Shown here piece after piece: positions 32,681-58,028 of a stretch of 64,000 bases of DNA; position 1 is the stretch's first letter, and the number at the start of each line of letters is the position of its first letter. Below the pieces are notes generated by a model. It was not told the origin of the DNA. It was given only the letters and a program-made list of their open reading frames with translations, and searched no databases. The position numbers and the translations under genes are program-made. This DNA is from a virus (Duplodnaviria > Heunggongvirae > Uroviricota > Caudoviricetes): positions 30,621 through 94,620 of IMG/VR virus record IMGVR_UViG_3300032050_000049; one strand, 5' to 3'.

Positions 32681-32720
32681 ATCTTATATAATATTACCAC
32701 GGTGCAATAAAAAAGTCAAG
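32678..32720 (-). promoter_or_regulatory. Sigma70-like promoter TTGACT-17-TAATAT, 10 nt before the DNA-ligase ATG
   Basis: Minus strand: CTTGACTT TTTTATTGCACCGTGG TAATAT TATATAAGAT ATG. Confidence 0.6.
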
Positions 32721-32742
32721 GAGATTTTCATCGTCCTTGACT
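32708..32742 (-). terminator. Intrinsic terminator downstream of the DUF262 gene, overlapping the DNA-ligase promoter
   Basis: Stem GTCAAGGA/TCCTTGAC with an 11-nt loop; T-tract on the minus strand. Confidence 0.6.
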
Positions 32743-32752
32743 TTGGTGTGGT

Positions 32753-33934
32753 TTAAGCAGAAACCGTGTTGATTTTTGTTTTATACTTATAAACTGCGGT
32801 TACGTTTTCGTCTGTCATTACCTTTGACTTGACCAAACCATTGGAAAGCAATTCATATCGCTTTTGACACTTTGGTGTTTCTCGTCCACGAAGCAATGCT
32901 GCATATGTCATTTTTTTGTCACCAACCTTATGATCAGCTTCTGGATTCTTCTTTAGAAGAGCGTTGATTTCCACAAACTTATACATAAACGTCTTTACAT
33001 CCTTGATCTGATTGCGATGACGGTGATAAAACACGAACAAATCAAATACAGTTTGCTTACTTAGCTTCATACCGTCCTTGAATACATCTTCATTTGGAGC
33101 GACCCACGTATTGAAGAAGTTGTCTACATCATTTTTAAAAAGAGATGACTTGCTGTTTAGCTCAGATCCATCTTCGTATTCACTGCGAAGAATGCCATCA
33201 CTAATATTCTTCTTGAATCCAAAACTATGAAAGAATGCCATACCAGCAAATTGCGAGTCAATCTTACGACGGTTATAATCTTGTTCTGAAAAGATCGAAA
33301 GAATCCAACTACGTGTAGTGAAATCCCGATAATATCTTTCGCCAAATTCACGACAAATCTTTGAAATTGGACTAATAATAGCATTACGCTTTTCAGCCGC
33401 GTTCAATTCACATCCACTATTTACAGCGATGAAAATATCACTCAATTGTGAACGAGTTGCATTGGTATATACTTGAACTGTGATGGTACGAGTTAGAATG
33501 AAATCTTTAACTGATTCACTCAGATCCGCCCATCGTTGGTCACGCTTGATGGTAAACTTATTGTCCAGTTCATCTGAATATGTTCCAGCACGCAATTCAA
33601 GTTGATTTGTAAACAACAAACGCAACGTAGTAAAACGGTTGTTACTATCCAAATTGAGATAGTTAGCTCCCTTGGAAAGCCAACCAGAGTAATAGTTGAT
33701 ATCTTCTGCCAACATTGCACTCTTTCTACATTCAGGAACGTCAGCAAAAATAAACTTGCTTGGAGCAATTCCCTTAAGCAAATTGTGGAGATAACTGCGT
33801 GACTTTGTTGCATCCCAACGAGCGGGACTCTGAAAACTATCGTCGATAAACACACTATCGAGAAACTTCTTTGCATTAGAAAGTTCCCAGTTTTCGGTTG
33901 TGGACTTAACCATCTTTTGATTGTTATTAATCAT
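32753..33934 (-). CDS. DUF262/ParB-like nuclease-NTPase-domain protein
   Basis: 'NLDSNNRFTTL' resembles the DGQQR(L)TT motif of DUF262 and GmrSD N-domains. No HNH C-domain seen. Confidence 0.5.
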   Translation of the reverse strand: MINNNQKMVKSTTENWELSNAKKFLDSVFIDDSFQSPARWDATKSRSYLHNLLKGIAPSKFIFADVPECRKSAMLAEDINYYSGWLSKGANYLNLDSNNRFTTLRLLFTNQLELRAGTYSDELDNKFTIKRDQRWADLSESVKDFILTRTITVQVYTNATRSQLSDIFIAVNSGCELNAAEKRNAIISPISKICREFGERYYRDFTTRSWILSIFSEQDYNRRKIDSQFAGMAFFHSFGFKKNISDGILRSEYEDGSELNSKSSLFKNDVDNFFNTWVAPNEDVFKDGMKLSKQTVFDLFVFYHRHRNQIKDVKTFMYKFVEINALLKKNPEADHKVGDKKMTYAALLRGRETPKCQKRYELLSNGLVKSKVMTDENVTAVYKYKTKINTVSA

Positions 33935-34085
33935 ATTACTTTTTATTTTTTATACTGGAATTTTTGGTTATGACATAATTGTCTAATTAATAATTTTTAT
34001 CTCAGACAGCGTAATTGCTTTTTGGATTCAAATTATCAGTCGTGAACCAGTTACTCACAACAAAATCATCTTATCAGTTGTTTCT

Positions 34086-34607
34086 TTAAAAGTCAAGCGG
34101 AACATTGAGCGTTTTCCAAAACTTTTCGTTGAGAATTTTTATAGGTACTTCGTTTTTTAGCTCAAAATTAGGATGTTCATACACATAATCGAGCAAAGTT
34201 TTTGCTGAAATGTAAAACAACACAATTTTATCACTACACAATTTGGTGCAAAAATACCCACCATTGTTAAGAACTTCAGCTTTATCTTCCCAAATCAATT
34301 TTTTCAAATTGCCCGATGTATGTCCCAGATAAATTGTGTTTGTTGGAGATACACGACGAATGTCTACACGAACAGTGGGGTCATTTGTCAATTCAAAATC
34401 CCACTTACTATTTGCTGGACTCTTTTTGATATTGGTATATTCGCTTTTGGTGGTCAAATAATCCAATATCATTCGTTCAATTAGTTCACCACATCCGCCT
34501 ATTTTAACTTGATTGTAAACATAATCGTTGATCATCTTATAGCGTTTTAATTCTTTAAGATAAATTTCACCCATATTATATACTTCAGATTTGAATTCAA
34601 TATTCAT
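34086..34607 (-). CDS. Hypothetical protein (173 aa)
   Basis: ORF. Confidence 0.5.
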   Translation of the reverse strand: MNIEFKSEVYNMGEIYLKELKRYKMINDYVYNQVKIGGCGELIERMILDYLTTKSEYTNIKKSPANSKWDFELTNDPTVRVDIRRVSPTNTIYLGHTSGNLKKLIWEDKAEVLNNGGYFCTKLCSDKIVLFYISAKTLLDYVYEHPNFELKNEVPIKILNEKFWKTLNVPLDF

Positions 34608-34609
34608 TT

Positions 34610-35035
34610 TTAATTTTTTACAATTTCACCCTTAGCATCACTATACCACACTTCACCCACATTAAATTGCTTGACCACACTTTGACAACCACAACACGGC
34701 TTGCTGTTGTTCAACTTACCCGTTCGATCCACTCTAAGTACAACCATTTTAAAATCACTCAGATTCTCACGACCACTCTTCATACACACACTCAACTCAG
34801 CGTGAAGTCCAACAAGCTGATGGTTTTTATAATCATATTCCAAAGTCTTGGGATGACTCTTACAGCTGTTTGTACCAATATGTACAATTTTACCACATCG
34901 AATCAAAAAAGCTATATGACTACACCTATGCTCAATGTTGAGCGGACACATAGCCTTAGCAATGTCAATGGTACGCTTCAGAATCTTGCTGTTCATTACT
35001 AAACTCATACTACCATCGACTTTATAAAAAATCAA
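34610..35035 (-). CDS. CDA-fold zinc deaminase (cytidine, dCMP or tRNA deaminase-like)
   Basis: 'HAELSV' ... 'PCCGCQ' (H-A-E / PCxxC). Confidence 0.6.
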   Translation of the reverse strand: MIFYKVDGSMSLVMNSKILKRTIDIAKAMCPLNIEHRCSHIAFLIRCGKIVHIGTNSCKSHPKTLEYDYKNHQLVGLHAELSVCMKSGRENLSDFKMVVLRVDRTGKLNNSKPCCGCQSVVKQFNVGEVWYSDAKGEIVKN

Positions 35036-35086
35036 CTACATTTTTTATATTTTGAAATTTTGAGGTAGTTGTGATATGATATATTT

Positions 35087-35794
35087 ATGGAAAACCTTTA
35101 TGTTGAAAAAATACACAATTCGATTGCCAAAGAATTGATTGTTAAACATCATTATACACACAAGTGGACCATAGCCGAGTTGTGTATCGGAATTTACGAC
35201 AAAAGCAAACGTAGTGTATTTTTTGACGTTCCTACGCTGGTTGGCGCAGTTGTATTTGGACCCACTGCTGGCGCAAATGTGGCTAGAAGTGTGTCTCCAC
35301 TATTAAATCATTCCAATTTATGGGAATTGAAACGATTGTGGGTAGCAGATGAATTGGGTAAAAATACTGAAAGTTGGGTTATTGGTCAATGTTTGAAATA
35401 TATCAAACAACATCACAGTGAAATAAAGTGTTTGATCAGTTATGCTGATCCTGATGCTGGACACATTGGTACCATATATCAAGCTACCAATTGGCTGTAT
35501 CAAGATATTGAAAGACGCAAAGGCACTAGTGGTTATATTGTTAGTTTTGACGGTGGTATTAAATGGCAACACTCACGTACATTATTCAACAAATATGGAA
35601 CATTCAACTATAATAAATTGGTGGAAGTGTTACCCAGACCATTTAAGATCAAAGAATTATCAGTTAAAGAACGATATATTTATCCTTTGGGAAGCAAAGT
35701 GGAAAAGAAAAATCTGATTAAAAGTTTGAATTATCCCATTATAGAATATCCCAAACTCAAATCAGATAAAGAAACTGTAGTGGAATTTAATTAA
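35087..35794 (+). CDS. Hypothetical protein on the opposite strand within the minus block; weak GNAT/Mom-like resemblance (speculative)
   Basis: 'KHHYTHKW', 'WELKRLWVADELGKN'; orientation anomaly. Confidence 0.55.
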   Translation: MENLYVEKIHNSIAKELIVKHHYTHKWTIAELCIGIYDKSKRSVFFDVPTLVGAVVFGPTAGANVARSVSPLLNHSNLWELKRLWVADELGKNTESWVIGQCLKYIKQHHSEIKCLISYADPDAGHIGTIYQATNWLYQDIERRKGTSGYIVSFDGGIKWQHSRTLFNKYGTFNYNKLVEVLPRPFKIKELSVKERYIYPLGSKVEKKNLIKSLNYPIIEYPKLKSDKETVVEFN

Positions 35795-36635
35795 TAATCT
35801 TCAACTGAATGTTGCCAAGTGTAAGATTTTGCACAATAACATTGTTTGCACTCAAAAACTCATACTTGCTTTCAACTCGCTTTACTTTACGATTACCCTT
35901 TTTGCTCTTACGATACACAATAACACCACCACTATAACTGTTGATAATCATCTGCGCAACAGTCTTACGCCATTCATAAGCTGAAAAATTACCAACAGTA
36001 TCAATCAAAATATTACCAGCCACATTGTTCTTAAAATTGTCGTTGGTTTTGATCATAGTCAACAAGGTATCAAACAATTCAAAATCAGAGCTTGAAAATT
36101 CAGTGACCTTTTTACGAAAATATTGATTAAAATATTTGGTAATATCACTATCAACAAAATAGGTATTCAAAATTTTATCACAAAAAGATCGAATTGTAAC
36201 AAGCTCATTGTACTTGTCAGTAACATTGCCACGGGTTTTGATAGCAAAATCAATGATGCCACTTTCTTTCTTCAATTCATAAGACTTATCACCCAACGTA
36301 ACATCTCCAGTCTCACCACGCTTGATGATGCTCTTTCTTGAATTGGCAATCATCAAAAATACAGACAACTCACCACGACCAGTCTGATGCTTGATGTTTT
36401 CAGGTGACGCAAGCACATTGTCAATTTTATGTGCATCACTATTAACATCATTCACCTCTTTGAGAAATGTGTCTACGTTGTCAAATTGCGGAATGCTGTT
36501 GATACCAATATTGGTCAAAGACGCAACCAAAGTGTCAATTTTGGATTGATGTGATTGAGTCTTGAGCTTGTCAAGACCATTTTTGATTTGATCGCTAAAA
36601 AAAGTGGTAGAATTGGTGCTCATTACAAGAACCAA
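35787..36635 (-). CDS. Hypothetical protein (282 aa)
   Basis: ORF. Confidence 0.5.
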   Translation of the reverse strand: MVLVMSTNSTTFFSDQIKNGLDKLKTQSHQSKIDTLVASLTNIGINSIPQFDNVDTFLKEVNDVNSDAHKIDNVLASPENIKHQTGRGELSVFLMIANSRKSIIKRGETGDVTLGDKSYELKKESGIIDFAIKTRGNVTDKYNELVTIRSFCDKILNTYFVDSDITKYFNQYFRKKVTEFSSSDFELFDTLLTMIKTNDNFKNNVAGNILIDTVGNFSAYEWRKTVAQMIINSYSGGVIVYRKSKKGNRKVKRVESKYEFLSANNVIVQNLTLGNIQLKIIN

Positions 36636-37053: not shown

Positions 37054-37785
37054 TTATTTTAAAGCCTTATAATTGTTGATGGGTGTATGCTTTTTTGTAA
37101 GTAAATCCTGATCAAGTACATCAATAGCTTTCTTTTTAGACTTATAAAAAGCATTGGTCAATACACGAAGTTCATAGTCTTCAATATTATATCCCATCTT
37201 GATATACTTAACCAATCGTTTCAACGTAACACTTGGATAATTAATGCTCTTTGGATTGAACTTCAAATTGTTATTTTGAATCTGGTTCAATACATTTTCT
37301 TCAATAACTACATTGTTACCATCATAAGCAATACAACATAAATTGATATCAAATGACCTAAATAAATCTTCAATGGTATCAAAATACTTGAAACTCACAC
37401 ACTGAATCTTCCACTCTGTATCCATATAGGATATTACCATTGTATGATGCCACTCAGATACAATATAACTGTTGACACTATACTTACCAGTTGATAAAGC
37501 ATTGCTATTTAATTCAAGCAAATACTTATCCAATTGTTCTTTGTTCTTAAAAAAGACATCCACATCACTATCACTCAGTGGTAGTTTACGATAGGTTCTA
37601 TGTAAAGCACCCCCAGCAATCCAAGGTCCATCTTCATTACACTTGGGTAGAATCTCAATCAAATGTTCAAGTACACTACCAGTTGTCAAATGCTTTAGAA
37701 AAACATTCAACGACAGTTTATTTGTTTTAATTGGTACCACACATTCAGCTTGTGGCAGTTCTACGAATTTAACATCAGTTGACAT
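37054..37785 (-). CDS. Pol-beta-superfamily nucleotidyltransferase, CCA-adding / poly(A)-polymerase head-domain-like
   Basis: 'GGALHRTYRKLPLSDSDVDVFF' against the class II CCA signature 'GGAVRDxxLGLPxxDxD'. Confidence 0.55.
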   Translation of the reverse strand: MSTDVKFVELPQAECVVPIKTNKLSLNVFLKHLTTGSVLEHLIEILPKCNEDGPWIAGGALHRTYRKLPLSDSDVDVFFKNKEQLDKYLLELNSNALSTGKYSVNSYIVSEWHHTMVISYMDTEWKIQCVSFKYFDTIEDLFRSFDINLCCIAYDGNNVVIEENVLNQIQNNNLKFNPKSINYPSVTLKRLVKYIKMGYNIEDYELRVLTNAFYKSKKKAIDVLDQDLLTKKHTPINNYKALK

Positions 37786-38005
37786 AAATCTTCTTTAATA
37801 AATTTGGATAACAATTATCCTGATAAGTTTTGGTATTCTTTCCACTACTATAACTCAAACATACACTTTCGTCAAGTACAGGTTCAAACTTGTGTTTAGT
37901 CTTATAAAACATATTTACACTATTATTGGTACAAGTCTGATAAAAATCACAACGTACACTCATACACATACCCAGATCATTGGTCTTAATACTATACTTT
38001 TTCAT
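37775..38005 (-). CDS. Hypothetical Cys-containing small protein
   Basis: ORF. Confidence 0.35.
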   Translation of the reverse strand: MKKYSIKTNDLGMCMSVRCDFYQTCTNNSVNMFYKTKHKFEPVLDESVCLSYSSGKNTKTYQDNCYPNLLKKIYVN

Positions 38006-38045
38006 AAAAAAATAAGGGAGGTACTGTTATATACCTCCCTTTTGA

Positions 38046-39056
38046 TTATTCCTTACTTCCAAGTAGGTAAGTATTGCTAATAGCCTTGAAACTAAACTCC
38101 CGTTCAAGACCACGAACAACTACACCTTCACGGTCAACACCCATATTCAATACACTCTTACCTTCAGCATACTTCAACATATTATCAACCAAGTTTTCAT
38201 TGGGTAATACATATCCATACTTTTCAAGTACAGGTACCATTGGCACTTCCAACCTAAACAACAACCACTCCAGTTCATCAAAGAACATACGACGACCCTT
38301 ATCAATGTCATAACCAGTAAAGAAAAACAACTTGTGGTCGCTCAATCCATACAAATTACCATTGATATTTGAACCAATCAATTCTCCCTGAAGCGCAATG
38401 TTCTTGCCATACTTAGTCAACTTATCCTTCAACTCAAGCATATTAGCCATACGCCATAGACTATTGTCATTGGTTTCAGTCAACTCCCAATTACGTCCAC
38501 AAACACCAAATACACCATTATTGAAGTAACAAGTGAAACTAGTACCATCCAACTTCTCAGTGATATACACTCGTTCTCCAACAGGCACAAAACCAATGTC
38601 ACTTTCAAAGTTCTGAATACGAGTTTCATCCGTCTTTGGAATAAAACTAGGAAATGTACCCTTGATCTTTCCAGCCAATTGAGCAGGAATAGGAGGTTCA
38701 TACTTGACAATATCAAGAGCCTCTGTCAAATCATCACCTTCCTTTGGATCAATTATACCATCTGGAATTGGAGTCAATAGACCTTGACTCAATTGTCCAC
38801 GCAACTTGATGGTCTTAAGACGAAATCCTTCAGCGGTTCCCATACGCTTGAAACTACTCTTACGCAAGAATTCAAACTGAGGTCGGATAGGTAAGAAGCT
38901 GTCAATTTCATAATAAACAGCCAAGTCACCTACCTTATATTCTCCAACTTTCACGACTACATTCCACCCCTTTACCTTAGCCACAACAATGGCATCAGCA
39001 CCAACAATAGGTTGAATGTCAACAATCTTTACAACACTAGCTAACTTACGTTCCAT
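38046..39056 (-). CDS. ATP-dependent RNA ligase, DraRnl/DRB0094-like with N-terminal OB-like domain
   Basis: Motif I 'EKLDGTS'. N-terminus 'VVKIVDIQPIVGADAIVVAKVKGWNVVVKVGEYKVGDLAVYYEIDSFLP'. The ATG at 39054-39056 follows 'AAAGGA'; the ORF-track start at 39098 is a TTG overlapping the upstream gene. Confidence 0.65.
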   Translation of the reverse strand: MERKLASVVKIVDIQPIVGADAIVVAKVKGWNVVVKVGEYKVGDLAVYYEIDSFLPIRPQFEFLRKSSFKRMGTAEGFRLKTIKLRGQLSQGLLTPIPDGIIDPKEGDDLTEALDIVKYEPPIPAQLAGKIKGTFPSFIPKTDETRIQNFESDIGFVPVGERVYITEKLDGTSFTCYFNNGVFGVCGRNWELTETNDNSLWRMANMLELKDKLTKYGKNIALQGELIGSNINGNLYGLSDHKLFFFTGYDIDKGRRMFFDELEWLLFRLEVPMVPVLEKYGYVLPNENLVDNMLKYAEGKSVLNMGVDREGVVVRGLEREFSFKAISNTYLLGSKE

Positions 39057-39072
39057 ATTTATCCTTTCTAAA

Positions 39073-39390
39073 TTAATAAGAGTCAAACTCAACCTCAAGT
39101 GAATTGAAATTGATAGTAGACGGATCTACATTCAAATCAATACCACCATCAACAACAAAAACCTTCAAATCCTTCTTAATCTCGGTAGAAGGTCCACCAC
39201 TACAGCTACAACCAGAGCTATAACACCAAGTGACGTTACCATCCTTGTCTACACCAACACCCTCATAAGAGTGATGACCATAACCCCAATTCTCATTCTC
39301 AATCTCCTTGAAAATGACAACGATATCATCATCAAACTTGCTCTTAGGAAGAGCGTCCCAATTCTGTACAATGTAATCTACGATATTCAT
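39073..39390 (-). CDS. Hypothetical protein (105 aa)
   Basis: ORF with upstream promoter motif. Confidence 0.45.
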   Translation of the reverse strand: MNIVDYIVQNWDALPKSKFDDDIVVIFKEIENENWGYGHHSYEGVGVDKDGNVTWCYSSGCSCSGGPSTEIKKDLKVFVVDGGIDLNVDPSTINFNSLEVEFDSY

Positions 39391-39429
39391 TACTCATCTA
39401 AGTTACCACGGAGTTTATACAAAGTCAAC
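39388..39429 (-). promoter_or_regulatory. Promoter motif GTTGACTT-N-CCGTGGTAACTT before the 39073..39390 gene
   Basis: GTTGACTTTGTATAAACTCCGTGGTAACTTAGATGAGTA ATG. Confidence 0.5.
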
Positions 39430-39480
39430 AAAAAACCCGCAGAATTTCTTCAACGGGTCACCAATGTTACTTGTTATTTT

Positions 39481-40386
39481 TTACTTGTTGGTACTTCCAA
39501 TATTAATGAATGGAACAACACCTCCACCATTATACACCGGCAACTTACCATCCCACCTCTGAAGTGCTTCATACTGAACCAGTGACGGAGTTAGTGACTG
39601 TGCCAACACAAGGTTAGCTTTTGCTTGAGCCTCTGCCTTTAGAGCAATACTCCTTGCTTCACCTTCCGCCTTAGCAATATTACTTTCCTTCTCACCACGA
39701 GCCTTTTCAATCACTTGATCTGCCTCTGCCTTTGACTGCTTGACCTTAGTCTCAGCCTCAATAGCACGTTGTGATGCTTCAAGTACTGCATTGATACGTG
39801 CCTGAACACTTTGATCTACACGAAGACCACCGTGGAAGCTAATCAACTCAAACTTGAATCCCTTGGGGCCAAGATGGGCATTGAGATTGCTCTTTACATT
39901 GTCAAGAAGGTACTGCTTACGTTCACCAAAGATATCACTAGCTTTCATTGTACTAGCAACTCGGTTGAATGCATTATTGATTTCATTCCGCATAAATCCG
40001 TGGGTAATAACGTCTGGATCTTGTCGGAACTCAACAAAGATTTGTGGAACCTTATCTGCCACAAATGTATAAGCAAGTGCAATATCTGCATTAACTACTG
40101 CACCCTCAATACTATTGAATGTAACACTATCATCACCGGGACTTTCCTTTGAACCAGCTGCCCTATCCCACACAGCATTTTGCATAAATGTGGGGAACTT
40201 ATAGATATCTTCTGTAAGAGGATTATAGAAGACACCACCAGTCACAAGAGGAAAGTCATTGACTCCCTTCTGACTACCCCACTGATTTACCTTGATGCCA
40301 ACATAACCAGGTTCAACCCTGTCACAACCAGTAAAGGTTGAAATGGCGACGATACCAGCAATAATACTAACAATGTTCTTATTCAT
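39481..40386 (-). CDS. SPFH/band-7 (HflK/C-, prohibitin-like) domain lipoprotein
   Basis: Signal peptide plus lipobox 'STFTGC'. SPFH core and C-terminal 'AEGEARSIALKAEAQAKA' coiled-coil. Confidence 0.55.
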   Translation of the reverse strand: MNKNIVSIIAGIVAISTFTGCDRVEPGYVGIKVNQWGSQKGVNDFPLVTGGVFYNPLTEDIYKFPTFMQNAVWDRAAGSKESPGDDSVTFNSIEGAVVNADIALAYTFVADKVPQIFVEFRQDPDVITHGFMRNEINNAFNRVASTMKASDIFGERKQYLLDNVKSNLNAHLGPKGFKFELISFHGGLRVDQSVQARINAVLEASQRAIEAETKVKQSKAEADQVIEKARGEKESNIAKAEGEARSIALKAEAQAKANLVLAQSLTPSLVQYEALQRWDGKLPVYNGGGVVPFINIGSTNK

Positions 40387-40627
40387 TTTCTTTATTTTCT
40401 GACTTGATGTTCTTGACCAACTTGGTCACATCACTTTTTAAGATTATCAGCGACCCGATAAAAAGTCCAGCGAAAAGTGCGGTTCCAACAAGATTTGCAA
40501 CGTCACTCTTTTGATTAATTAAATTAGTGGATTGATTAAACAAACAAGCGCCCACTGTAAGTACAACAAAATACTTTGCACAATACTTTACAATATTTTT
40601 ATTACTAAACATAAATTTTTCATTCAT
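40379..40627 (-). CDS. Small membrane protein partner of the SPFH gene
   Basis: Two hydrophobic segments; 8-nt overlap with the SPFH start. Confidence 0.4.
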   Translation of the reverse strand: MNEKFMFSNKNIVKYCAKYFVVLTVGACLFNQSTNLINQKSDVANLVGTALFAGLFIGSLIILKSDVTKLVKNIKSENKENE

Positions 40628-40644
40628 ATCAAATAGACTATACT

Positions 40645-40680
40645 ACAAAAAAGAGGAACTGTCAAGTCCCTCTTAAATGT
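40645..40680 (-). terminator. Intrinsic terminator after the 40683..41327 gene
   Basis: Stem AAGAGG/CCTCTT; minus-strand T-tract 'TTTTTGTAGTATAG' then ATG of the next gene. Confidence 0.5.
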
Positions 40681-40682
40681 TT

Positions 40683-41327
40683 TTAATGATGTTTATCTTG
40701 CTTAACGTGATTCTTGTTCATCATAATCTTCTGAATCTCTGGAAAAGACAACGGCTTGCCGTGACCATCCCAACCCACATCCAGAATTTTATTGTCTGGG
40801 TTATCAAGTTGAGTAGTTGGATTGGTATAGTGGCTGTGACCACTCAACTGCCAAGCACCCTTTTGCATCTGATTAAAAATCTGATGTGGGTAATGATGAA
40901 TAACAATCATATGACCATTTACAATTAGTTCCTTGTAATAACCCAGATAAGTTATCTTACCAACTGCATATGGATACACTTCAATATCTTTACCATATTC
41001 AGTTGCAATAGCTTCTTCATACAATCTACGAATACAACTGTTATGATTACCCCAAATATAAGCAATATTTTGACAATTGATTCGTGCTAGAATTTCATTG
41101 AACTCTGGAGGGGTAATGTTTAGACAAAAATCACCCAGATGAATTAGTGTATCTTCTGGACGCACTACTTCATTAATCTTTGCAATCAAAGCATCATCGT
41201 GTTCATAACGATCTTTATAACCTCTAGCTTCAAATATGAAACTTTGGTTATGCCGGAAATGAGTATCACTGGTAAAGAATACCTTGTGACTATCATTATG
41301 TGTTAGTTTTAGAGGTCTTTCAAACAT
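40683..41327 (-). CDS. Calcineurin-like metallophosphoesterase (phosphatase partner of the Pnk-type kinase)
   Basis: 'SDTHF', 'GDFCLN', 'GNHN' metallophosphatase motifs. Confidence 0.7.
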   Translation of the reverse strand: MFERPLKLTHNDSHKVFFTSDTHFRHNQSFIFEARGYKDRYEHDDALIAKINEVVRPEDTLIHLGDFCLNITPPEFNEILARINCQNIAYIWGNHNSCIRRLYEEAIATEYGKDIEVYPYAVGKITYLGYYKELIVNGHMIVIHHYPHQIFNQMQKGAWQLSGHSHYTNPTTQLDNPDNKILDVGWDGHGKPLSFPEIQKIMMNKNHVKQDKHH

Positions 41328-41778
41328 AAATCATTACATCAATTCCTTCATTAAAGGATGGATCTTCATATTTTGATAGCATCCTATCAATAATATTTGT
41401 AGGCACAACTCTACCACCTTGTTCTCCTCGTTTCTTGTTTCTTTCAATTAATCCTTGACGATCCATCTTGAAAACAATAGCAACTACTTTTGCACCATAT
41501 TTCTTTGCAGTCTTAATATAGTCACTACGTTCCTTACGGTTTACACTGGTTGCGTCAACCAATACATTTTTACCATCTTTTAGAAATTCGTCAACCTTTC
41601 TTTTGATGTGACCGAAAACAAGTGGGGTAACAGTTTGATCTTCTTCACTTTTACCATATACAGCACGTAGTGAATCACTACTTAGATATTCAATATCTTT
41701 GTCTTTAATAAAGTTTTTTGCATATGTGGATTTACCACTTCCAGGCAATCCAACCGCAATATAAAGTGTATTATTCAT
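41320..41778 (-). CDS. Polynucleotide 5'-kinase (T4 Pnk kinase-domain-like)
   Basis: 'GLPGSGKST' Walker A, 'SSDSLR', 'NRKERS', 'ERNKKRG...VP'; collinear with the T4 Pnk N-domain. Confidence 0.75.
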   Translation of the reverse strand: MNNTLYIAVGLPGSGKSTYAKNFIKDKDIEYLSSDSLRAVYGKSEEDQTVTPLVFGHIKRKVDEFLKDGKNVLVDATSVNRKERSDYIKTAKKYGAKVVAIVFKMDRQGLIERNKKRGEQGGRVVPTNIIDRMLSKYEDPSFNEGIDVMIYV

Positions 41779-41813
41779 ATGTACATCTTAACTCAACTTG
41801 TTATAAAGTCAAG
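41776..41813 (-). promoter_or_regulatory. Promoter motif CTTGACTT-16-TAAGAT before the Pnk-kinase gene
   Basis: CTTGACTTTATAACAAGTTGAGTTAAGATGTACAT ATG. Confidence 0.5.
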
Positions 41814-41882
41814 AAAATTGTTAAGGGTAGGTAAAAGATGTTTATTTGGGGTACAATCTATGGTATATATGTAGTGTAATCA

Positions 41883-42254
41883 ATGGTTGGTTACAGAGTA
41901 ACAAAAGGTAAATATATGTTAAAGTATCTATTAGTATTGACCGCAGCATTGTCTTTAAATGCTCAACAAGGTCCAAAACAACCAAAAACAGGTGGACCAG
42001 ATCCAGTACCACCACATTTGCGTCCTGAACGTCCCAAGTTGACTGAAGAACAAAAGAAGCAACGTAGTGAACTTGTTGCTAAATATGATGCAAATAAAGA
42101 TGGTAAGTTGGACAAAGAAGAACGTATCAAGGTTAGTGACGCTGATCGTAAGTTAATGAGAAGTTTTGGTCCACCTCCAAGAGGTCCAAAACACGATGGT
42201 CCTCCTCCAACAAAAGATGGTGAAAGACCAGGTAAACCACACAAGAAGAACTAA
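41883..42254 (+). CDS. Secreted Pro/Lys-rich small protein (likely start ATG 41916 after 'AAGGT')
   Basis: Signal peptide 'MLKYLLVLTAALSLNAQQ'; followed by an intrinsic terminator. Confidence 0.5.
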   Translation: MVGYRVTKGKYMLKYLLVLTAALSLNAQQGPKQPKTGGPDPVPPHLRPERPKLTEEQKKQRSELVAKYDANKDGKLDKEERIKVSDADRKLMRSFGPPPRGPKHDGPPPTKDGERPGKPHKKN

Positions 42255-42263
42255 AACAAATAA

Positions 42264-42291
42264 CCCCACTAAATTAGTAGTGGGGTTTTTG
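42264..42291. terminator. Bidirectional intrinsic terminator between convergent genes
   Basis: CCCCACTA-AATTAG-TAGTGGGG then TTTTT; A-tract on the other side. Confidence 0.75.
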
Positions 42292-42306
42292 ATTTATACT
42301 TAAAAA

Positions 42307-43380
42307 TTACGGTGTTTGTATAGCATTGAGTAATGCTCTTGCTACAACACGATCTTTTTCTTTTTCTTCTTCAGGAAGTGAAGAATAATTTACATTTGAC
42401 AATTTTCTTCTTTGTTCAATTTTAGCGTCCAATTTACCATTATCTCTCAACTTTTGAGTATCACTGAATTGGTCTGGGTTTGCCACAAACTTTTTAGCAG
42501 TTTCATTCCAACCACTATGAATTGCATCCGAAATCTTTTCTATGTCAGTTACACCCGCGTCAATTACTCTTTTGGCAAATTCCGCTGATTTTAAATTGGC
42601 TTGCCATCCAAATGTATTACCCGGAGTGCTTCTACCATAATGATAAGCATTATCCAATGCTTCATCACTAACGGTTGCCAAATCTTCTATTGACATATTT
42701 TCATTCAACTTCTTGTGTAGAAGTTTAAGATGCTTTTGAAATGTTTCGTTTAAAATATTCTGGTTCATATGATTATAAGTATCTTCGGTTATATGTAATT
42801 GTTTTAAAAAAAAGTCAACAATTTCTTTTATTATAGGTGCTAATCCTTTCGTGGAAAACATAATATCAGATTCTTTTTCAACGTCATCAAAATCTAAATC
42901 ATAACTTCCAAGCTTTAAACCATTAGTAATGATATCACGTATACTTTTAAGTGCAGCTCCATCACCACTCAATCCTTTTTTATACAATATCAACTTTGCA
43001 ACTTTCATTAATAAACCAATTGTAATTGTATAATATATCGTAATAGCAATATGTTTTAATTCAGATTCATCTTTTGTTTTTAGTTTTGGTATTTTTTTCA
43101 ATACAAACACCAATCCATTAATATATGATGTAGCCCATTTATCAATATTATCTATTGCAATTTGAATTTTTGGTAACATAGTTTTTGTTACAAAATTTGC
43201 AGTCTTCGATTTGTTAGAATCAGCAAACAAATTTTTAGGCATAATTAATGCAATTAAATTTTTTACTATATTAAGAAATGCAGCAGATATTACTGGTAAG
43301 GTAAGCAGCAATGTCACAATTGATACTACATCTCCAATTCCTTCTACATATAGTTTTTTCTTATTTACATTTTTAGCCAT
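42307..43380 (-). CDS. Membrane-anchored hypothetical protein (357 aa)
   Basis: N-terminal TM segments. Shares the 'NETFQKHLKLLHKKL' module with the 43460 gene. Confidence 0.5.
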   Translation of the reverse strand: MAKNVNKKKLYVEGIGDVVSIVTLLLTLPVISAAFLNIVKNLIALIMPKNLFADSNKSKTANFVTKTMLPKIQIAIDNIDKWATSYINGLVFVLKKIPKLKTKDESELKHIAITIYYTITIGLLMKVAKLILYKKGLSGDGAALKSIRDIITNGLKLGSYDLDFDDVEKESDIMFSTKGLAPIIKEIVDFFLKQLHITEDTYNHMNQNILNETFQKHLKLLHKKLNENMSIEDLATVSDEALDNAYHYGRSTPGNTFGWQANLKSAEFAKRVIDAGVTDIEKISDAIHSGWNETAKKFVANPDQFSDTQKLRDNGKLDAKIEQRRKLSNVNYSSLPEEEKEKDRVVARALLNAIQTP

Positions 43381-43400
43381 ATTGATATAAATATATCTAC

Positions 43401-43439
43401 AAAAAAATAAACCCCACTAAATTAATAGTGGGGTTTTTG
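43401..43439. terminator. Intrinsic terminator, same stem as 42264
   Basis: AAAAAAATAA-CCCCACTA-AATTAA-TAGTGGGG-TTTTT. Confidence 0.75.
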
Positions 43440-43459
43440 CTTATTAAATTGATATAGTT

Positions 43460-44119
43460 TTAAACTAATACAGCGTCATATAACTGGTTTGAATTGGCTG
43501 CTTTTATTCGTAGTTCCACTTTGCCAGCACTTCGAATTACATCAATTACCACGGCACCCATTAAACCATCTGGTTCATTACCTTCATTAGTTACTTCATC
43601 AACTGGTCTTTTTAATCCGCCGGCTGTATAGAGTATATCTAATAATTGTTTAAAGTTTTCGTCACTCCAATTTGGAAAGTTGCTTCTAACATCAGGATCC
43701 CCGCCTCCTTGACTCATACTTACAAAATCTCTAGCGGACATTTGCAAAGATGATGAACCTTTACCAAAATGTTTTATATATTGATTAGCAGTGTTTTTTA
43801 CTTTTTCATCTGAAACACCACTGCCTTTTTTAACAATTTTTACAAACTCATTTCCTTTCAATTCAAAACCACTTTCTTTGAATGCATCCACCAATTCATT
43901 AAATGCATCCGTACCTTTTTCAATATCTAAATCATTCAAAACGGTATCAACTTCAAATGAAGAGGTATAACCACTACTATTTTGATCTAACCAAAAGGCT
44001 AGTTTAGCATCTATAGTGTCGTCGTCAGGCTCAAATAATCCTTCATTCAACTGAAGTTTTTTATTTAGAAGACCCAAATGTTTTTTAAATGTTTCGTTAA
44101 GTAAATTGCTCATATACAA
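43460..44119 (-). CDS. Hypothetical protein (219 aa), partial paralog of 42307..43380
   Basis: Shared 'NETFKKHLGLLNKKL' module. Confidence 0.5.
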   Translation of the reverse strand: MYMSNLLNETFKKHLGLLNKKLQLNEGLFEPDDDTIDAKLAFWLDQNSSGYTSSFEVDTVLNDLDIEKGTDAFNELVDAFKESGFELKGNEFVKIVKKGSGVSDEKVKNTANQYIKHFGKGSSSLQMSARDFVSMSQGGGDPDVRSNFPNWSDENFKQLLDILYTAGGLKRPVDEVTNEGNEPDGLMGAVVIDVIRSAGKVELRIKAANSNQLYDAVLV

Positions 44120-44130
44120 TAAATATATAC

Positions 44131-44164
44131 AAAAAAATAAAACCCATCAAATTAATGATGGGTT
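44131..44164 (-). terminator. Intrinsic terminator after the Rnl1-like gene
   Basis: AACCCATCA-AATTAA-TGATGGGTT; minus-strand T-tract 'TTTATTTTTTTG'. Confidence 0.7.
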
Positions 44165-44170
44165 CTACTA

Positions 44171-45262
44171 TTAGTTCTTTAAGACTTGGAACATCAACTT
44201 CTTATATTCTTCCTTACCTAATGGACGATTATCCAAGAGTTTAAATACAAAAGCAGCTCTGTTTGTTTCACCATAAGATGAAATAACCAGTTGTGCTTGT
44301 TCTTTTCTGGTAGGCAATGAACGAAGTCTGTTATTCACAAAACTATTCATACCATCCACAATCTTGTTTACTTCCTTCTTACCATCCGCAATACGGCTAA
44401 TAGTACCTTTAATTTGTTCTGCTAACTCGAAATCAAAGGTGGTAAAGATATAGTTATAAAAAGTGTTGTAGTCAGGCATACCCTGTTCCAACCACACATC
44501 CATAATTTTTTCCAGTGAACTAAGTTCAGACTTTAGATGATGTAACAGGAGATATTTAGATGCTTTAATCTTATGAATAGTCTGATCATTCTTACTATAT
44601 AAGCATACGCCTTCTTTATCTTGCCACTTATCTACAATCTGTAACATATCAGTTATATCAGTAAAAGTATAGATTTCCGGACGAAGTAAATCATACTTCT
44701 TAGCCATAGCATCCAACATATCTTGTTGTGCAAGTGAATAGTTGATATGATTAATAAAACCAATCAACTTCCACATAGGTTCATCGCCATACGATAACAC
44801 AATTTTATTGATTGGAGACAGCCATTCCCAAATGATAGAATAACCCCAAGTATCATTGTTATCCTGTAACTTACTTAGAATAGTTGACTTGAACAATTCT
44901 AACTCAAAACCATTAGCCATAGTAGAAGCATCAACAGTTCCACGGGTTCGTAGAATATATTGACCCTTATACTTGCTAACAATCAAAGTGCTACCGTCCA
45001 ACTTTTCAACAACAGTGCAATGCTTCAATGAAGCAGGAACAGGAAAGTGTTCAGGATTCTCCCCATAGTTAGTAAACTTCGGAAATGATGCACTAATAAC
45101 TTCACCCTCATAATTCACAACCACACTACGCATGTGCTTGTTGTCTTGCGTCCACTTAGTGCCAATATTTTGGGGTTGAATCAAATGGACAATTTCACCG
45201 AAAGCGTGGAAATGGTGCACCATAAATTGAGTGCGGTCAACCTTATCTATGTCAATTTTCAT
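44171..45262 (-). CDS. RNA ligase, T4 Rnl1-like
   Basis: Motif I 'VVEKLDGSTL'. N-terminal 'NYEGE...PKF.N.GENPE' parallels T4 RnlA 'FEMDGEKP...EKFFNLNENP'. Confidence 0.7.
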   Translation of the reverse strand: MKIDIDKVDRTQFMVHHFHAFGEIVHLIQPQNIGTKWTQDNKHMRSVVVNYEGEVISASFPKFTNYGENPEHFPVPASLKHCTVVEKLDGSTLIVSKYKGQYILRTRGTVDASTMANGFELELFKSTILSKLQDNNDTWGYSIIWEWLSPINKIVLSYGDEPMWKLIGFINHINYSLAQQDMLDAMAKKYDLLRPEIYTFTDITDMLQIVDKWQDKEGVCLYSKNDQTIHKIKASKYLLLHHLKSELSSLEKIMDVWLEQGMPDYNTFYNYIFTTFDFELAEQIKGTISRIADGKKEVNKIVDGMNSFVNNRLRSLPTRKEQAQLVISSYGETNRAAFVFKLLDNRPLGKEEYKKLMFQVLKN

Positions 45263-47661: not shown

Positions 47662-47698
47662 ATAACAACTTTACCCCAACTTTTTTTAAATGTCAAAC
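47659..47698 (-). promoter_or_regulatory. Promoter TTGACA-17-TAAAGT
   Basis: TTTGACA TTTAAAAAAAGTTGGGG TAAAGT TGTTAT ATG. Confidence 0.55.
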
Positions 47699-48213
47699 AC
47701 TTTTCCGTCAAAATATGCTTTACATCCCAAAACTCGGTCAATCGCAAAGATTTTCACATCAGCTTCACTAAACATAGTAAATGTAGCATTATCGTGTCCC
47801 TTCCATTGTTCACGTTGTGCCTCATTACACAAATCATTAAATTGCCGGTGTATATAAACATCTTTGATGCCACTTTGGATGATTCCCCTAGCACAGTCTG
47901 CACAAGGCAAAGCATTGGTATAAAGAATTGCGCCATCGGTGTTTATACCGTACCTAGCAGCTGCGTAAATCGCATTGCGTTCACCGTGTTCGTACCATTT
48001 GTACTTTTCTGGTCGTTCGTTACGAATTTCATTTTTGTCTGCTACCCCAATAGGAATGCCATTGAAGCCAGTAGATATGATTCGTTTGTCTTTTACAATG
48101 AGAGCACCAATCTTTGTCTTGGGATCTTTGGATTTACTTGCAACCCAATAGACTCCTTGTAAAAACCATTCGTTCCAATCTGGTGGTGTATAATTTAATC
48201 CCATAAGTGACAA
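47686..48213 (-). CDS. dCMP deaminase
   Basis: 'HGERNAI', 'LPCADCARGIIQSGIKDVY'. Confidence 0.8.
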   Translation of the reverse strand: MSLMGLNYTPPDWNEWFLQGVYWVASKSKDPKTKIGALIVKDKRIISTGFNGIPIGVADKNEIRNERPEKYKWYEHGERNAIYAAARYGINTDGAILYTNALPCADCARGIIQSGIKDVYIHRQFNDLCNEAQREQWKGHDNATFTMFSEADVKIFAIDRVLGCKAYFDGKVFDI

Positions 48214-48740
48214 TAGTATTTTGCAAATAGTTCTAGACCTTTTTGTTTGCGTTCTTGTAATTCATTGTGTTTTTTCATCCACTCATCAAAAGATTGTTTT
48301 TGTTCTGGAGTTTTTCCTTTATTTAGAAGCCATTCTGTATCTCCAAGATAATGTGGAAATGGATTGAATCGTTCGTCATCATTTAGATATTCAAATGTCC
48401 AAATAAGTTCATCAAGTACATTTTCCCATTCTTCTGGTGTGAAATCTGGATGATAACCATACCGTTTCATTTTCTTGAAGTGTTTTAGTCTGGGTAGAAT
48501 AAACTTACTGAATGTACCATCCAAACTCCAACATTCTTCATTACTTACACCATAACGCATACGTTGATATGTACTAATAAACCATCGTTTAATGTCATGA
48601 CATTTGTAATATACACGCCAACCATATGGTACTGTATCAAACAACCAGTCACCAAATTTATTGGTTCTATACCATTTTTCTTCTGAAAGAGGTGTGTTTT
48701 CAGAATCTTCTAATCGTTCGTTGATTTTTTTGAGATCCAT
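48195..48740 (-). CDS. Hypothetical protein (181 aa)
   Basis: ORF with terminator-promoter unit upstream. Confidence 0.5.
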   Translation of the reverse strand: MDLKKINERLEDSENTPLSEEKWYRTNKFGDWLFDTVPYGWRVYYKCHDIKRWFISTYQRMRYGVSNEECWSLDGTFSKFILPRLKHFKKMKRYGYHPDFTPEEWENVLDELIWTFEYLNDDERFNPFPHYLGDTEWLLNKGKTPEQKQSFDEWMKKHNELQERKQKGLELFAKYYCHLWD

Positions 48741-48775
48741 ATTACAACTATATCACAGAGTGTATATGTGTCAAA
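48738..48775 (-). promoter_or_regulatory. Promoter TTTGACA-17-ATAGTT immediately after a terminator
   Basis: TTTGACA CATATACACTCTGTGAT ATAGTT GTAAT ATG. Confidence 0.45.
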
Positions 48776-48803
48776 CAAAAAACCCCACATTTTACTGTGG
48801 GGT
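48771..48803 (-). terminator. Intrinsic terminator after 48829..49050, fused to the TTTGACA promoter of 48195..48740
   Basis: CCCCACA-TTTTAC-TGTGGGG with a minus-strand T-tract. Confidence 0.7.
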
Positions 48804-48828
48804 ATGATGAATAAACAAACAAATGAAA

Positions 48829-49050
48829 TTATTTAACGTTTTTCAAACCAGGATGTGCTTTGTGCCAAGGCATTTCGTGTACAACTGTTGGTGCTTGGTT
48901 AGACCATCTAGCTTGTTGTGGTTGTTGGGCTTGTTGTTGAGCTTGATCCATTTGTTGAGCAGCTAACATAGCATTTGCGGTACCTGGATTGTTGCTGGTA
49001 AGACCTACAACTGGATTTTGTGTTTTGATTCCTAAATAAAGACCTGACAT
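48829..49050 (-). CDS. Hypothetical Q-rich protein (73 aa)
   Basis: ORF ending at a terminator. Confidence 0.4.
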   Translation of the reverse strand: MSGLYLGIKTQNPVVGLTSNNPGTANAMLAAQQMDQAQQQAQQPQQARWSNQAPTVVHEMPWHKAHPGLKNVK

Positions 49051-49079
49051 AGTGTTATACCTTTTGTTAAATATAACTA

Positions 49080-49277
49080 TTAAGCTTTATCATCATTATA
49101 CACAAAATTATCACTAAACATAGAATATAAATAATCGTGATGTTTATCTTCTAAAAGATATTCACGTATATCAATAATGCGACGGTCATCACAACAATGA
49201 CACTGCATATAAATCTTATCCCGCTTTAATTTAGCTGGCATATCACAATAATTGCAAGTAATTTGAAGGTTGTCCAT
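49080..49277 (-). CDS. Zinc-ribbon small protein
   Basis: CNYC...CHCC. Confidence 0.4.
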   Translation of the reverse strand: MDNLQITCNYCDMPAKLKRDKIYMQCHCCDDRRIIDIREYLLEDKHHDYLYSMFSDNFVYNDDKA

Positions 49278-49360
49278 ATACTATAAAAATATCATACATT
49301 TTAAATAAAACAAGGGATGTCACTGTTACGTAACATCCCCCATTATATTGTAACATTAGG

Positions 49361-50140
49361 TTACAGATCGCTATAGTTCTTCAGTTCAATCTTACCATTT
49401 AGTATGGTAATATACTGACTAAGATTACAATCAATACAAATGTTGTTTGCATCAACGATATTAGCAAATCCTTCTCTATGATATTGTGCGGCTTTACCAG
49501 TTCGCCATTGATTTGTATGACCCACAATTTGTCTCAACTCTTCAATGGGTTGAAACTCTTCGTTAAAATCACACCAAACAATACCACCACATTTGTTTCT
49601 ACCACCCCTTGCATATCCAGCGCCATAAAACCAATGTGGTTCATTGATCTTTAGTTTGGTTCTAGCATCATTATCACTTTGATCCAGATACTTGAAGATA
49701 ACTTCATTTGTGGCACAAATTGGAGGTAACAAACGTTTATCCAATCCAGCGTGGGTTAATAGAATATCATCTACAACAATCGACCAGTGAAACTTATCTT
49801 GTATATCACCTCTGACCTTGCCAATAACGTTATCAATTGCATCATACTTCCATTGTTCATAACCACTACACCAAGATGTAGAAGCATTAAACAGATAGTG
49901 TATATCGTGATTACCAAATAGAGTATAGTTCTTTGGGTTAGGAAGAAATACATCTCTTAGATATTTGGCTGTAGCAACATAGTCAGTAACATCATCCAAA
50001 TTGAAACTATCAAACCAATCACCCAAACAAATGTTGATATCGCCATCTTCTTTGGTAAAGATGGTATCCAACTTTGTGTAATGATTATGTGGATCAGCAG
50101 CAATTACAATCTTTTGTTTATTGGAACTAAACTTTAGCAT
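49361..50140 (-). CDS. Calcineurin-like metallophosphoesterase (Ser/Thr-phosphatase-like)
   Basis: 'AADPHNHY', 'GDWFDSF', 'GNHD'. Confidence 0.65.
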   Translation of the reverse strand: MLKFSSNKQKIVIAADPHNHYTKLDTIFTKEDGDINICLGDWFDSFNLDDVTDYVATAKYLRDVFLPNPKNYTLFGNHDIHYLFNASTSWCSGYEQWKYDAIDNVIGKVRGDIQDKFHWSIVVDDILLTHAGLDKRLLPPICATNEVIFKYLDQSDNDARTKLKINEPHWFYGAGYARGGRNKCGGIVWCDFNEEFQPIEELRQIVGHTNQWRTGKAAQYHREGFANIVDANNICIDCNLSQYITILNGKIELKNYSDL

Positions 50141-50176
50141 ACTGAGAGTATAACACGATTATTTTTAAAAGTCAAG
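50138..50176 (-). promoter_or_regulatory. Promoter TTGACT-17-TATACT
   Basis: CTTGACTT TTAAAAATAATCGTGT TATACT CTCAGT ATG. Confidence 0.6.
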
Positions 50177-50410: not shown

Positions 50411-50467
50411 TTCTCGGTAGATTTAGACTTCTTTTTATCTCCCCAGTTAATTTTATCGTAATTAGAA

Positions 50468-57988: not shown

Positions 57989-58028
57989 ATAATATACTAT
58001 ATCATAGTATGGATACTAAATCAATATT

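Follow-up and report, generated by a model that had tools for sequence, protein, structure and literature searches.

Predicted RNA-repair genes of the window

The window, a stretch of 64,000 nucleotides (nt) corresponding to positions 30,621–94,620 of the IMG/VR record IMGVR_UViG_3300032050_000049 (Caudoviricetes), comes from a large, low-GC tailed phage that is uncultured. A tail-fibre and baseplate module occupies its plus strand from about 1 to 30000 and an early/accessory region its minus strand, where genes for two RNA ligases, a predicted polynucleotide kinase, a metallophosphoesterase and a nucleotidyltransferase (NTase) lie within the 8.2-kb interval 37054–45262. A first-pass annotation, made by a model from the letters of this DNA, had named these genes and a peptidyl-tRNA hydrolase gene farther off, and had read them as a toolkit for healing and sealing cut tRNA. 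All of the open reading frames (ORFs) that it named were present at the positions given, on the minus strand, and in searches with hidden Markov models each protein matched the family stated for it. A cyclic-phosphate-processing receiver (cRec) gene was absent from its list. The genes are given below, with protein lengths in amino acids (aa):

44171–45262, minus strand: Rnl1-like ATP-dependent RNA ligase, 363 aa (Pfam, phrog_562, T4 Rnl1 structures)
41320–41778, minus strand: predicted Pnkp-type P-loop polynucleotide 5'-kinase, 152 aa (AAA_33, PDB, NCBIfam)
40683–41327, minus strand: binuclear metallophosphoesterase of the aq_1665/phrog_547 type, 214 aa (phrog_547, aq_1665)
38046–39056, minus strand: Rnl5-family (DraRnl/NgrRnl) ligase with an N-terminal OB domain, 336 aa (Pfam, PDB, NCBIfam)
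37054–37785, minus strand: Gad2-family pol-beta NTase, 243 aa, with a head and neck fold like that of class II CCA-adding enzymes (Gad2 homology, motifs, model)
51571–51951, minus strand: cRec domain protein, 126 aa (PF20274, phrog_1479)
60880–61254, minus strand: Pth2-type peptidyl-tRNA hydrolase, 124 aa (Pfam PTH2), 15 kb off the cluster

RNA ligases

The Rnl1-like ligase was borne out by matches to Pfam RNA_lig_T4_1 (8.1e-11; 42.6 bits vs a gathering cut-off of 28.3), to phrog_562 (1.4e-32, residues 35–360 aligned) and to the T4 Rnl1 structure 2c5u (1.7e-8, the PDB alignment ending at residue 269). With NCBIfam TIGR02308 it scored 58 bits, under the equivalog cut-off of 242, and it is, judging from its sequence, a divergent Rnl1 member. 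In the 2c5u alignment R45, K62, K87 (the lysine of KLDG) and G90 correspond to T4 R54, K75, K99 and G102, respectively, and E146, E217, G218, K231 and K233 to T4 E159, E227, G228, K240 and K242; nucleotidyltransferase motifs I (KxDG), III, IV and V are all present. T4 K119 is replaced by R107 and T4 F77 by T64, and these two, with R54 and K75, are Rnl1-specific sites upstream of motif I in T4 mutational work. Nine of 11 essential T4 Rnl1 residues were kept and one more was conservatively changed. Of the C-terminal helical domain, which gives Rnl1 its tRNA specificity, the phrog_562 alignment would take in the expected region up to residue 360, beyond the end of the PDB alignment. The protein is a predicted sealer of breaks in single-stranded loops.

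The second ligase starts not at the TTG at 39098 but at the ATG at 39056, for which there is a ribosome-binding site, AAAGGA. It consists of an OB domain (PHA02142 OB domain, PF21189, 2.6e-39, residues 5–97) and a nucleotidyltransferase domain (RNA_ligase, PF09414, 2.4e-25, residues 162–325) without a C-terminal module. Its earlier assignment as a DraRnl/DRB0094-like ligase with an OB domain held, with 192.4 bits on NCBIfam TIGR02306 (DRB0094; equivalog cut-off 151.15) and an end-to-end alignment with Naegleria NgrRnl (5cot, 2e-70, residues 3–333 vs 5–336). The full-length match including the OB domain is common to this protein and DraRnl/NgrRnl, from which it differs by its phage origin and its end-healing neighbours. 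Homologues were present in 347 phage records, all at less than 45% identity. Ligases of the Rnl5 family seal duplex nicks with an RNA 3'-OH strand (PMC5397189), while a tRNA role of the one in the window is an assumption.

Predicted end-healing enzymes

The kinase matched Pfam AAA_33 at 2.8e-27, and its best NCBIfam model was bacter_Pnkp (TIGR04075; 6.9e-23, model positions 9–131). Among the PDB entries, it matched the kinase domain of C. thermocellum Pnkp (4gp7) at 2.4e-16, Capnocytophaga Pnkp1 (4xrp) at 3e-12, tRNA(Sec) kinase at 3e-11 and T4 Pnk at 8e-9. The first-pass annotation was therefore right in calling it a kinase, but its likeness is to bacterial Pnkp rather than to the T4 enzyme. 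The P-loop GSGKST and the elements SSDxxR and ERNKKR line up with Pnkp active-site elements, and nucleotide-monophosphate kinases matched far worse, which argues for a polynucleotide substrate, although it does not prove one.

The phosphoesterase start overlaps the kinase stop by 8 nt. The protein matched phrog_547 at 4.4e-39 and had no Pfam or NCBIfam match; its sole PDB relative was Aquifex aq_1665 (1xm7; 3.5e-5 in the single-sequence search and 3.7e-7 when the family profile was used). The metal-binding set is complete (DxH, GD, GNH, H, GHxH), with D66, N94, H95, H145, H164 and H166 invariant in the family alignment and D21 and H23 nearly so. An AF2 model built on a shallow alignment had a pLDDT of 58 and was too poor for fold comparison. 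The first-pass annotation had pointed to the layout of bacterial Pnkp at this place: the order, with an adjoining calcineurin-type phosphoesterase, is as it said, but kinship to the Pnkp phosphatase did not emerge, neither single-sequence nor profile PDB searches giving a sequence link to that (lambda-phosphatase-like) domain. The enzyme is a predicted healer of 2',3'-cyclic-phosphate or 3'-phosphate ends.

The same is predicted of cRec for 2',3'-cyclic-phosphate ends. It matched Pfam cREC_REC (PF20274) at 3e-18 (66.7 bits vs a gathering cut-off of 27) and phrog_1479 at 4.6e-23, and Iyer et al., who saw operon links of this family to RNA ligases, proposed that it processes 2',3'-cyclic phosphates (PMC7824862). 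The claim of a Pth2 at 60880 proved correct (Pfam PF01981, 2.5e-24, 86.1 bits vs a cut-off of 23), while the NCBIfam scores (Pth2, 2.1e-24) stayed below their equivalog cut-offs (85.8 vs 126 and 76.4 vs 82). It possibly recycles tRNA or rescues ribosomes.

Gene order and its conservation

In related IMG/VR loci compared by tBLASTn (numbered with the prefix L), the genes follow in the order Rnl1, variable ORFs, a plus-strand ORF, kinase, phosphoesterase, an optional SPFH cassette, Rnl5, a 76-aa ORF and NTase. The Rnl1-like protein is encoded in all 38 of these loci (52–91% identity), the kinase in 26, the phosphoesterase (after the kinase) in 22, Rnl5 in 22 and cRec in 15, and the order Rnl1-kinase-phosphoesterase-Rnl5 is kept in at least 22 at 50–95% protein identity. 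In the closest relative, L001, the phosphoesterase, Rnl5, 76-aa ORF and NTase are contiguous, and a GIY-YIG endonuclease gene (2914–3774, minus strand), different from the GIY-YIG ORF of the window, stands between the kinase and the phosphoesterase.

A trio of ligase, kinase and phosphoesterase is also present in phages of other families. T5-like Vibrio phage Ceto has an RNA ligase, a small ORF, an 'ATPase' and a phosphoesterase, and E. coli phage ESCO37 a phosphoesterase, an Rnl1-like ligase and an 'ATPase'; in phmmer searches the two 'ATPases' were homologous to the window kinase (1.1e-5 and 5e-4, respectively) and the ESCO37 ligase matched the Rnl1-like ligase (7e-7). Since the order is kept in at least 22 related contigs and the trio recurs in unrelated phages, the grouping is not a chance co-occurrence.

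In a divergent branch (L021, L024–L028 and L032) an Rnl5-like gene (37% identity) is followed by the kinase, and cRec starts where the kinase ends, as in L025 (kinase 14588–15040, cRec 15040–15411, the Rnl5-like gene before the kinase). The slot after the kinase is held by the metallophosphoesterase in the window lineage and by cRec in the divergent branch, a swap that would be expected if both were 3'-end-healing partners of the kinase and that gives contextual support to the predicted role of cRec and to a role of phrog_547 in RNA end healing.

About half of the interval 37054–45262 is cargo unrelated to repair:

39073–40627, minus strand: SPFH/Band-7 lipoprotein cassette between the phosphoesterase and Rnl5 (ORFs 39073–39390, 39481–40386 and 40379–40627; phrog_200, 8.6e-62)
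41883–42254, plus strand: small ORF rich in Pro and Lys, probably secreted; its hydrophobic N-terminus resembles a signal peptide by eye, and DANKDGKLD weakly matches an EF-hand
42307–43380 and 43460–44119, minus strand: variable ORFs with the common motif LNETF[KQ]KHLxLLxKKL

The 76-aa ORF (37775–38005, minus strand) does not belong to this cargo: it encodes a Cys-rich protein co-conserved downstream of Rnl5, and the NTase start overlaps it by 11 nt. Neither the two variable ORFs nor the Cys-rich protein gave family matches. The SPFH cassette is missing from L001 and several other relatives, the Pro/Lys-rich ORF is kept in 25 of the 38 related loci and the 76-aa ORF in 12, staying beside Rnl5 in L053 and L054 where the NTase is replaced. 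Of the 219-aa variable protein, an 86-aa ORF of L001 (L001:1269–1529) retains the two termini alone. ORF 42307–43380, found in only two of the 38 relatives, is flanked by a 26-nt hairpin pair (42262–42287 and 43410–43435, minus strand; identical but for one unspecified loop position, 0 expected) and looks like a swappable cassette between repeated hairpins. Terminator-like hairpins are enriched in general (14 seen vs 4.2 expected), standing after Rnl1, each variable ORF, the phosphoesterase and Rnl5, so that the region is made up of cassettes each terminated separately.

A region built in this way might be a dumping ground of moron-like cassettes, in which the enzymes would act independently, for instance the Rnl1-like ligase in tail-fibre attachment and the phosphoesterase in nucleotide metabolism. 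The hairpins bracketing each unit would fit with it, as would the interspersed cassettes varying by relative (SPFH, the EF-hand-like ORF, ORF 42307 and the GIY-YIG gene of L001) and the annotation of phrog_562 and T4 Rnl1 homologues as 'tail fibre attachment catalyst'. However, the core enzymes remain together as the cargo between them changes, the kinase and phosphoesterase genes overlap, the kinase adjoins cRec and Rnl5 in the divergent branch and the trio is found in phages of other families, and we regard independent cassettes as a very unlikely explanation.

Proposed healing and sealing of RNA

A heal-and-seal function in RNA repair is well supported by inference from the conserved gene order and the recurrence of the trio in unrelated phages; the catalytic residues are kept in the ligases, the kinase and the phosphoesterase. 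We consider it fairly probable that the early/accessory region specifies a system for the healing and sealing of RNA ends, for which the following substrates and reaction order, with counter-defence as the purpose, are inferred. A host ribonuclease, such as an anticodon nuclease or another metal-independent ribotoxin, would cut tRNA or other RNA and leave 2',3'-cyclic-phosphate and 5'-OH ends. The metallophosphoesterase (40683–41327), perhaps with cRec (51571–51951), would open the cyclic phosphate and remove the 3' phosphate to give a 3'-OH, and the Pnkp-type kinase (41320–41778) would phosphorylate the 5'-OH. Breaks in single-stranded loops would then be sealed by the Rnl1-like ligase (44171–45262) and duplex-held nicks by Rnl5 (38046–39056). 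Pth2 may release broken peptidyl-tRNAs, and the NTase might restore lost 3' nucleotides, as the unrelated RlaP does, or alternatively serve in Gad2-like anti-defence. The tRNA toolkit of the first-pass annotation thus stood as regards the activities for 2',3'-cyclic-phosphate/5'-OH breaks, while its restoration of 3' ends by a CCA enzyme did not.

Several points besides the tail-fibre annotation weigh against such a system. The cluster is known from sequence alone, and both a tRNA scan and an Rfam scan of the 64-kb window were empty. Members of the phosphoesterase family were found in 1234 phage records, often with no ligase adjacent (e.g., Staphylococcus phage 812), and the role of the family may be wider than RNA end healing; in the divergent branch about 12 kb separate the phosphoesterase from the kinase. 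Hairpins part Rnl1, kinase-phosphoesterase, Rnl5 and NTase into separate transcription units, so that co-regulation of the repair genes would be an assumption. Finally, the physiological role of Rnl5 ligases is uncharted, the DraRnl knockout being sensitive to ionising radiation (PMC5397189).

This last phenotype, together with the sealing by Rnl5 of duplex nicks bearing an RNA 3'-OH, would suit a system in which nicks in DNA or in RNA-DNA hybrids, and not tRNA, are processed by the kinase, phosphoesterase, Rnl5 and the ATP-dependent DNA ligase encoded nearby, with ribonucleotide patches, primer junctions or restriction/defence nicks in a hypermodified phage genome as candidate substrates. Enzymes of the kinase family (Pnkp, PNKP) also accept 5'-OH ends of DNA, a DNA ligase gene stands straight after Rnl5 in L014 and L023 and 1.7 kb from the trio in ESCO37, and genes for Mom, a dCMP deaminase, a ThyA-like protein, dihydrofolate reductase (DHFR) and glycosyltransferases are present in the window. 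On the other hand, the Rnl1-like ligase, cRec and Pth2 have known or predicted RNA or tRNA substrates, and the trios of Ceto and ESCO37 use Rnl1-like ligases, not Rnl5. Processing of DNA or hybrid nicks seems unlikely.

Nucleotidyltransferase and the Gad2 family

The NTase had no match in the Pfam, NCBIfam or PADLOC libraries and matched phrog_18122 and phrog_1614. Its family comprises 1794 representative clusters at E <= 1e-3, and G59, D74, D76, Q128 and D146 are invariant in 83 members; database relatives bear the Pfam tag PF26128, a model outside the Pfam copy searched and one for which no literature mention was found. Proteins of phages and giant viruses with the fold of the family are numerous in the BFVD database; nearly all of them are uncharacterised, and some carry fused ankyrin, BTB or VWFA domains.

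Comparison of the family with E. coli Cca by hhalign (E 3.4e-5) aligned motifs A, B and C. Motif A (IAGGALHR ... SDVDVF) falls on Cca residues 4–25 (class II GGxVRD ... DxD), and in motif B the RRDLTINA of Cca is met by sFDfTICQ, xFD replacing RRD. Opposite motif D of Cca, EDPLR (EDxxR, the CTP/ATP template), the family profile has a deletion and columns without conservation. The predicted model contains the head and neck alone, without the tRNA-binding body and tail of class II enzymes (about 400 aa), and its nearest solved folds are RNA 3'-end NTases, class II CCA-adding and poly(A) enzymes coming closest to the fold of the family. With aligned head motifs but with motif D, body and tail missing, the protein is a CCA-head-like NTase and not a CCA-adding enzyme; the first-pass annotation, which had likened it to the latter, was right about the pol-beta type and head motif A. 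The absence of a PolyA_pol Pfam match also speaks against a true CCA-adding enzyme, which is ruled out. Likewise ruled out were RlaP, with no PF10127 match up to E 10 for the query and two relatives and none in 83 members, and a CD-NTase or antibiotic NTase, to which there was no sequence or fold match. Nucleotidyl transfer to the 3' end of a nucleic acid is the most likely activity of the enzyme.

Homology was found instead to the N-terminal domain of Gad2 from Bacillus phage SPbetaL7, which was matched in a tBLASTn search of cultured phages at 3e-8 (L041:3956–5158) and in pairwise BLASTP at 7e-15 (29% identity over 164 aa, Gad2 residues 16–162), with the IAGG, DxD, Q, FDxT/NxC and KY motifs in common. 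Gad2 has 400 aa, and its C-terminal ~240 residues are missing from the 243-aa NTase; the genomic setting differs as well. Gad2, a predicted NTase, is a genetically validated inhibitor of Gabija (bioRxiv 10.1101/2023.05.01.538930), and as late as February 2026 its mechanism was given as unknown (PMC12904381).

The NTase is an accessory, variably present cassette. It was found in 13 of the related loci and is missing from several in which the kinase, phosphoesterase and Rnl5 stay: L014 and L023, with the DNA ligase gene in its absence following Rnl5, L053 and L054, with a carbamoyltransferase cassette in its place, and L024–L026. Its neighbourhoods in IMG/VR were collected with a degenerate DNA pattern for GPWIAGG, which gave 103 usable loci in 38 sequence clusters (locus searches with three single divergent members gave 0, 2 and 0 loci); seeds for Rnl2, RtcB, HAD-Pnk and 2H were not included in the neighbour search, and the association rate is a lower bound. 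The window's own cluster has Rnl5 at 254 nt and its sister cluster a kinase and cRec at 3–5 kb. In L103 cRec is immediately upstream of the NTase, a phosphoesterase lies 1.7 kb away in L133 and 3.7 kb away in L055 and L056, and two weaker cases of RNA-repair neighbours were seen besides. The majority of the 38 clusters had no RNA-repair neighbour detectable with the seeds used, and the largest had only a DNA ligase nearby, within 3 kb in four of 27 loci. Among the cultured phages, the NTase-family gene of the Yersinia jumbo phage fHe-Yen9-03 has an Rnl1-like ligase at 1.6 kb and Pnk at 3.5 kb, and the other seven of eight NTase loci (SPbeta-like, Aeromonas, Klebsiella, Vibrio, Stenotrophomonas phage DLP_6, Moorella and Perkons) have no RNA-repair gene close by. 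An annotated DNA ligase and a Ser/Thr phosphatase lie near the NTase in DLP_6 (L046), which possibly carries two tandem NTase paralogues; in this phage and in L067, L086, L127 and L167 the NTase-family gene is 0.5–3 kb from an ATP-dependent DNA ligase, not an RNA ligase.

The link of the NTase to RNA repair is accordingly suggestive, and we take seriously, if tentatively, the possibility that it is a Gad2-like anti-defence enzyme directed against Gabija or another DNA-targeting or end-sensing system, a mere neighbour of the repair genes with no part in repair of tRNA 3' ends or breaks. Its homology to a validated Gabija inhibitor with all family motifs in common, its absence from loci that retain the repair genes and the many family members without RNA-repair neighbours all agree with this. 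Set against it are the missing Gad2 C-terminal part and the low identity, the RNA 3'-end NTases as closest solved folds and the proximity to repair genes in the window, L103, L133 and fHe-Yen9-03; moreover, as long as the mechanism of Gad2 is unknown, anti-defence and repair are not mutually exclusive readings of the NTase.

A more far-reaching idea, and to us a distinctly unlikely one, is that the Gad2 family as a whole consists of stripped-down head-and-neck kin of class II CCA-adding and poly(A) enzymes acting on nucleic-acid 3' ends, which some lineages have recruited to RNA break-repair modules beside Rnl5, cRec or Rnl1/Pnk. If that were true, Gad2 might defeat Gabija via nucleotidyl transfer to an RNA, tRNA or DNA end and not by binding the complex, and the window would supply a short, unfused member of the family for biochemistry. 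GajA belongs to the OLD nuclease family, another member of which, P2 Old, reportedly cuts tRNA anticodon arms. In any case, the NTase domain shared by Gad2 with a family that resembles RNA 3'-end NTases and stands beside an RNA ligase offers a testable lead on the mechanism of Gad2.

Relation to known repair systems

With the T4 tRNA repair system, in which Pnkp and Rnl1 counter PrrC, the cluster shares the logic by which cleaved tRNA is healed by a kinase at the 5' end and a phosphoesterase at the 3' end and is sealed by an Rnl1-type ligase. It differs in that the kinase is of the bacterial Pnkp type, the phosphatase is a separate binuclear metallophosphoesterase rather than a fused HAD (DxDxT) domain, an Rnl5 is present as second ligase and the NTase is of the Gad2 family, while that of T4 is an RlaP. 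T4 NrdC.11 was placed in the RlaP family of RNA-ligase-associated NTases, and RlaP was shown to replace one or two lost RNA 3' nucleotides before ligation (preprint PMC12776372). The NTase of the window resembles RlaP (PF10127) in its seat beside an RNA ligase and in a plausible 3'-nucleotide-adding role, but represents a separate pol-beta lineage. From class II CCA-adding, A-adding and poly(A) polymerases it is set apart by the lack of body and tail, the xFD motif B and an unconserved motif D.

The bacterial Pnkp/Hen1 system of C. thermocellum is alike in the kinship of the kinase domain and in the order of kinase, calcineurin-superfamily phosphoesterase and ligase. There, however, the three activities form a single kinase-phosphatase-ligase polypeptide, whereas in the window they are encoded by separate genes and aq_1665 is the one structural match of the phosphoesterase, with none to the Pnkp phosphatase. 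A Pfam scan of about 60 ORFs of the 64-kb window turned up no Hen1-like methyltransferase.

A further counterpart is found in the jumbo-phage kits surveyed by Iyer et al. (2021; PMC7824862), which comprise several ATP-dependent RNA ligases, Pnk, phosphoesterases (some of them calcineurin-like), cRec, a pol-beta NTase and PTH2. Since its inventory matches these systems, the cluster is a further example of a kit already catalogued in large phages, although the NTases of that survey are RlaP and bona fide CCA-adding enzymes and its phosphatases mainly HAD, compared to a Gad2-family NTase and an aq_1665-type phosphatase here. The statement of the first-pass annotation that the set is more elaborate than that of T4 has limited force, given NrdC.11 in T4 and the multi-ligase kits of jumbo phages. 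A conserved and abundant environmental phage lineage hereby joins the phages with multi-enzyme RNA-repair kits. Modestly new are the alternation of cRec and metallophosphoesterase beside the kinase and the CCA-head-like fold of the Gad2 family with RNA-repair neighbours in some lineages; neither overturns current understanding.

Other features of the window

When the 8.2-kb region was compared by megablast with 50,697 phage records, nothing matched, so that no close cultured relative could be named. Within the structural module, six large ORFs in a row (344–455 aa; 17874–25313, plus strand) had no PHROG match at 1e-5, which indicates that the lineage is remote from the cultured phages.

Further products of the accessory region are an ATP-dependent DNA ligase, Mom, two deaminases, ThyA-like, DHFR and APS-kinase-like proteins, glycosyltransferases, two extra metallophosphoesterases and three YopX proteins. 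The modification and nucleotide-metabolism genes are located at 31583–36635 and 47686–59406 (Mom, dCMP deaminase, a second deaminase-like ORF, a long ThyA-like protein of 383 aa, DHFR, a P-loop protein resembling APS kinase and three ORFs resembling glycosyltransferases), and relatives have a carbamoyltransferase beside the Rnl5 region, which together suggests that the phage DNA is hypermodified. Individual features are as follows:

35087–35794, plus strand: Mom, a DNA-modification gene
49361–50140, minus strand: additional calcineurin-like phosphoesterase, unlike the Pnkp phosphatase and with no ligase adjacent
52564–53244, plus strand: GIY-YIG homing-endonuclease-like ORF abutting the ThyA-like gene
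59403–60113, minus strand: additional calcineurin-like phosphoesterase, LpxH/YfcE-like (NCBIfam, 3e-15), likewise unlike the Pnkp phosphatase and with no ligase adjacent
56865–57365, minus strand: ORF of the accessory region whose N-terminus has a methylation motif like that of type IV pilins (PF07963, 2.7e-5)

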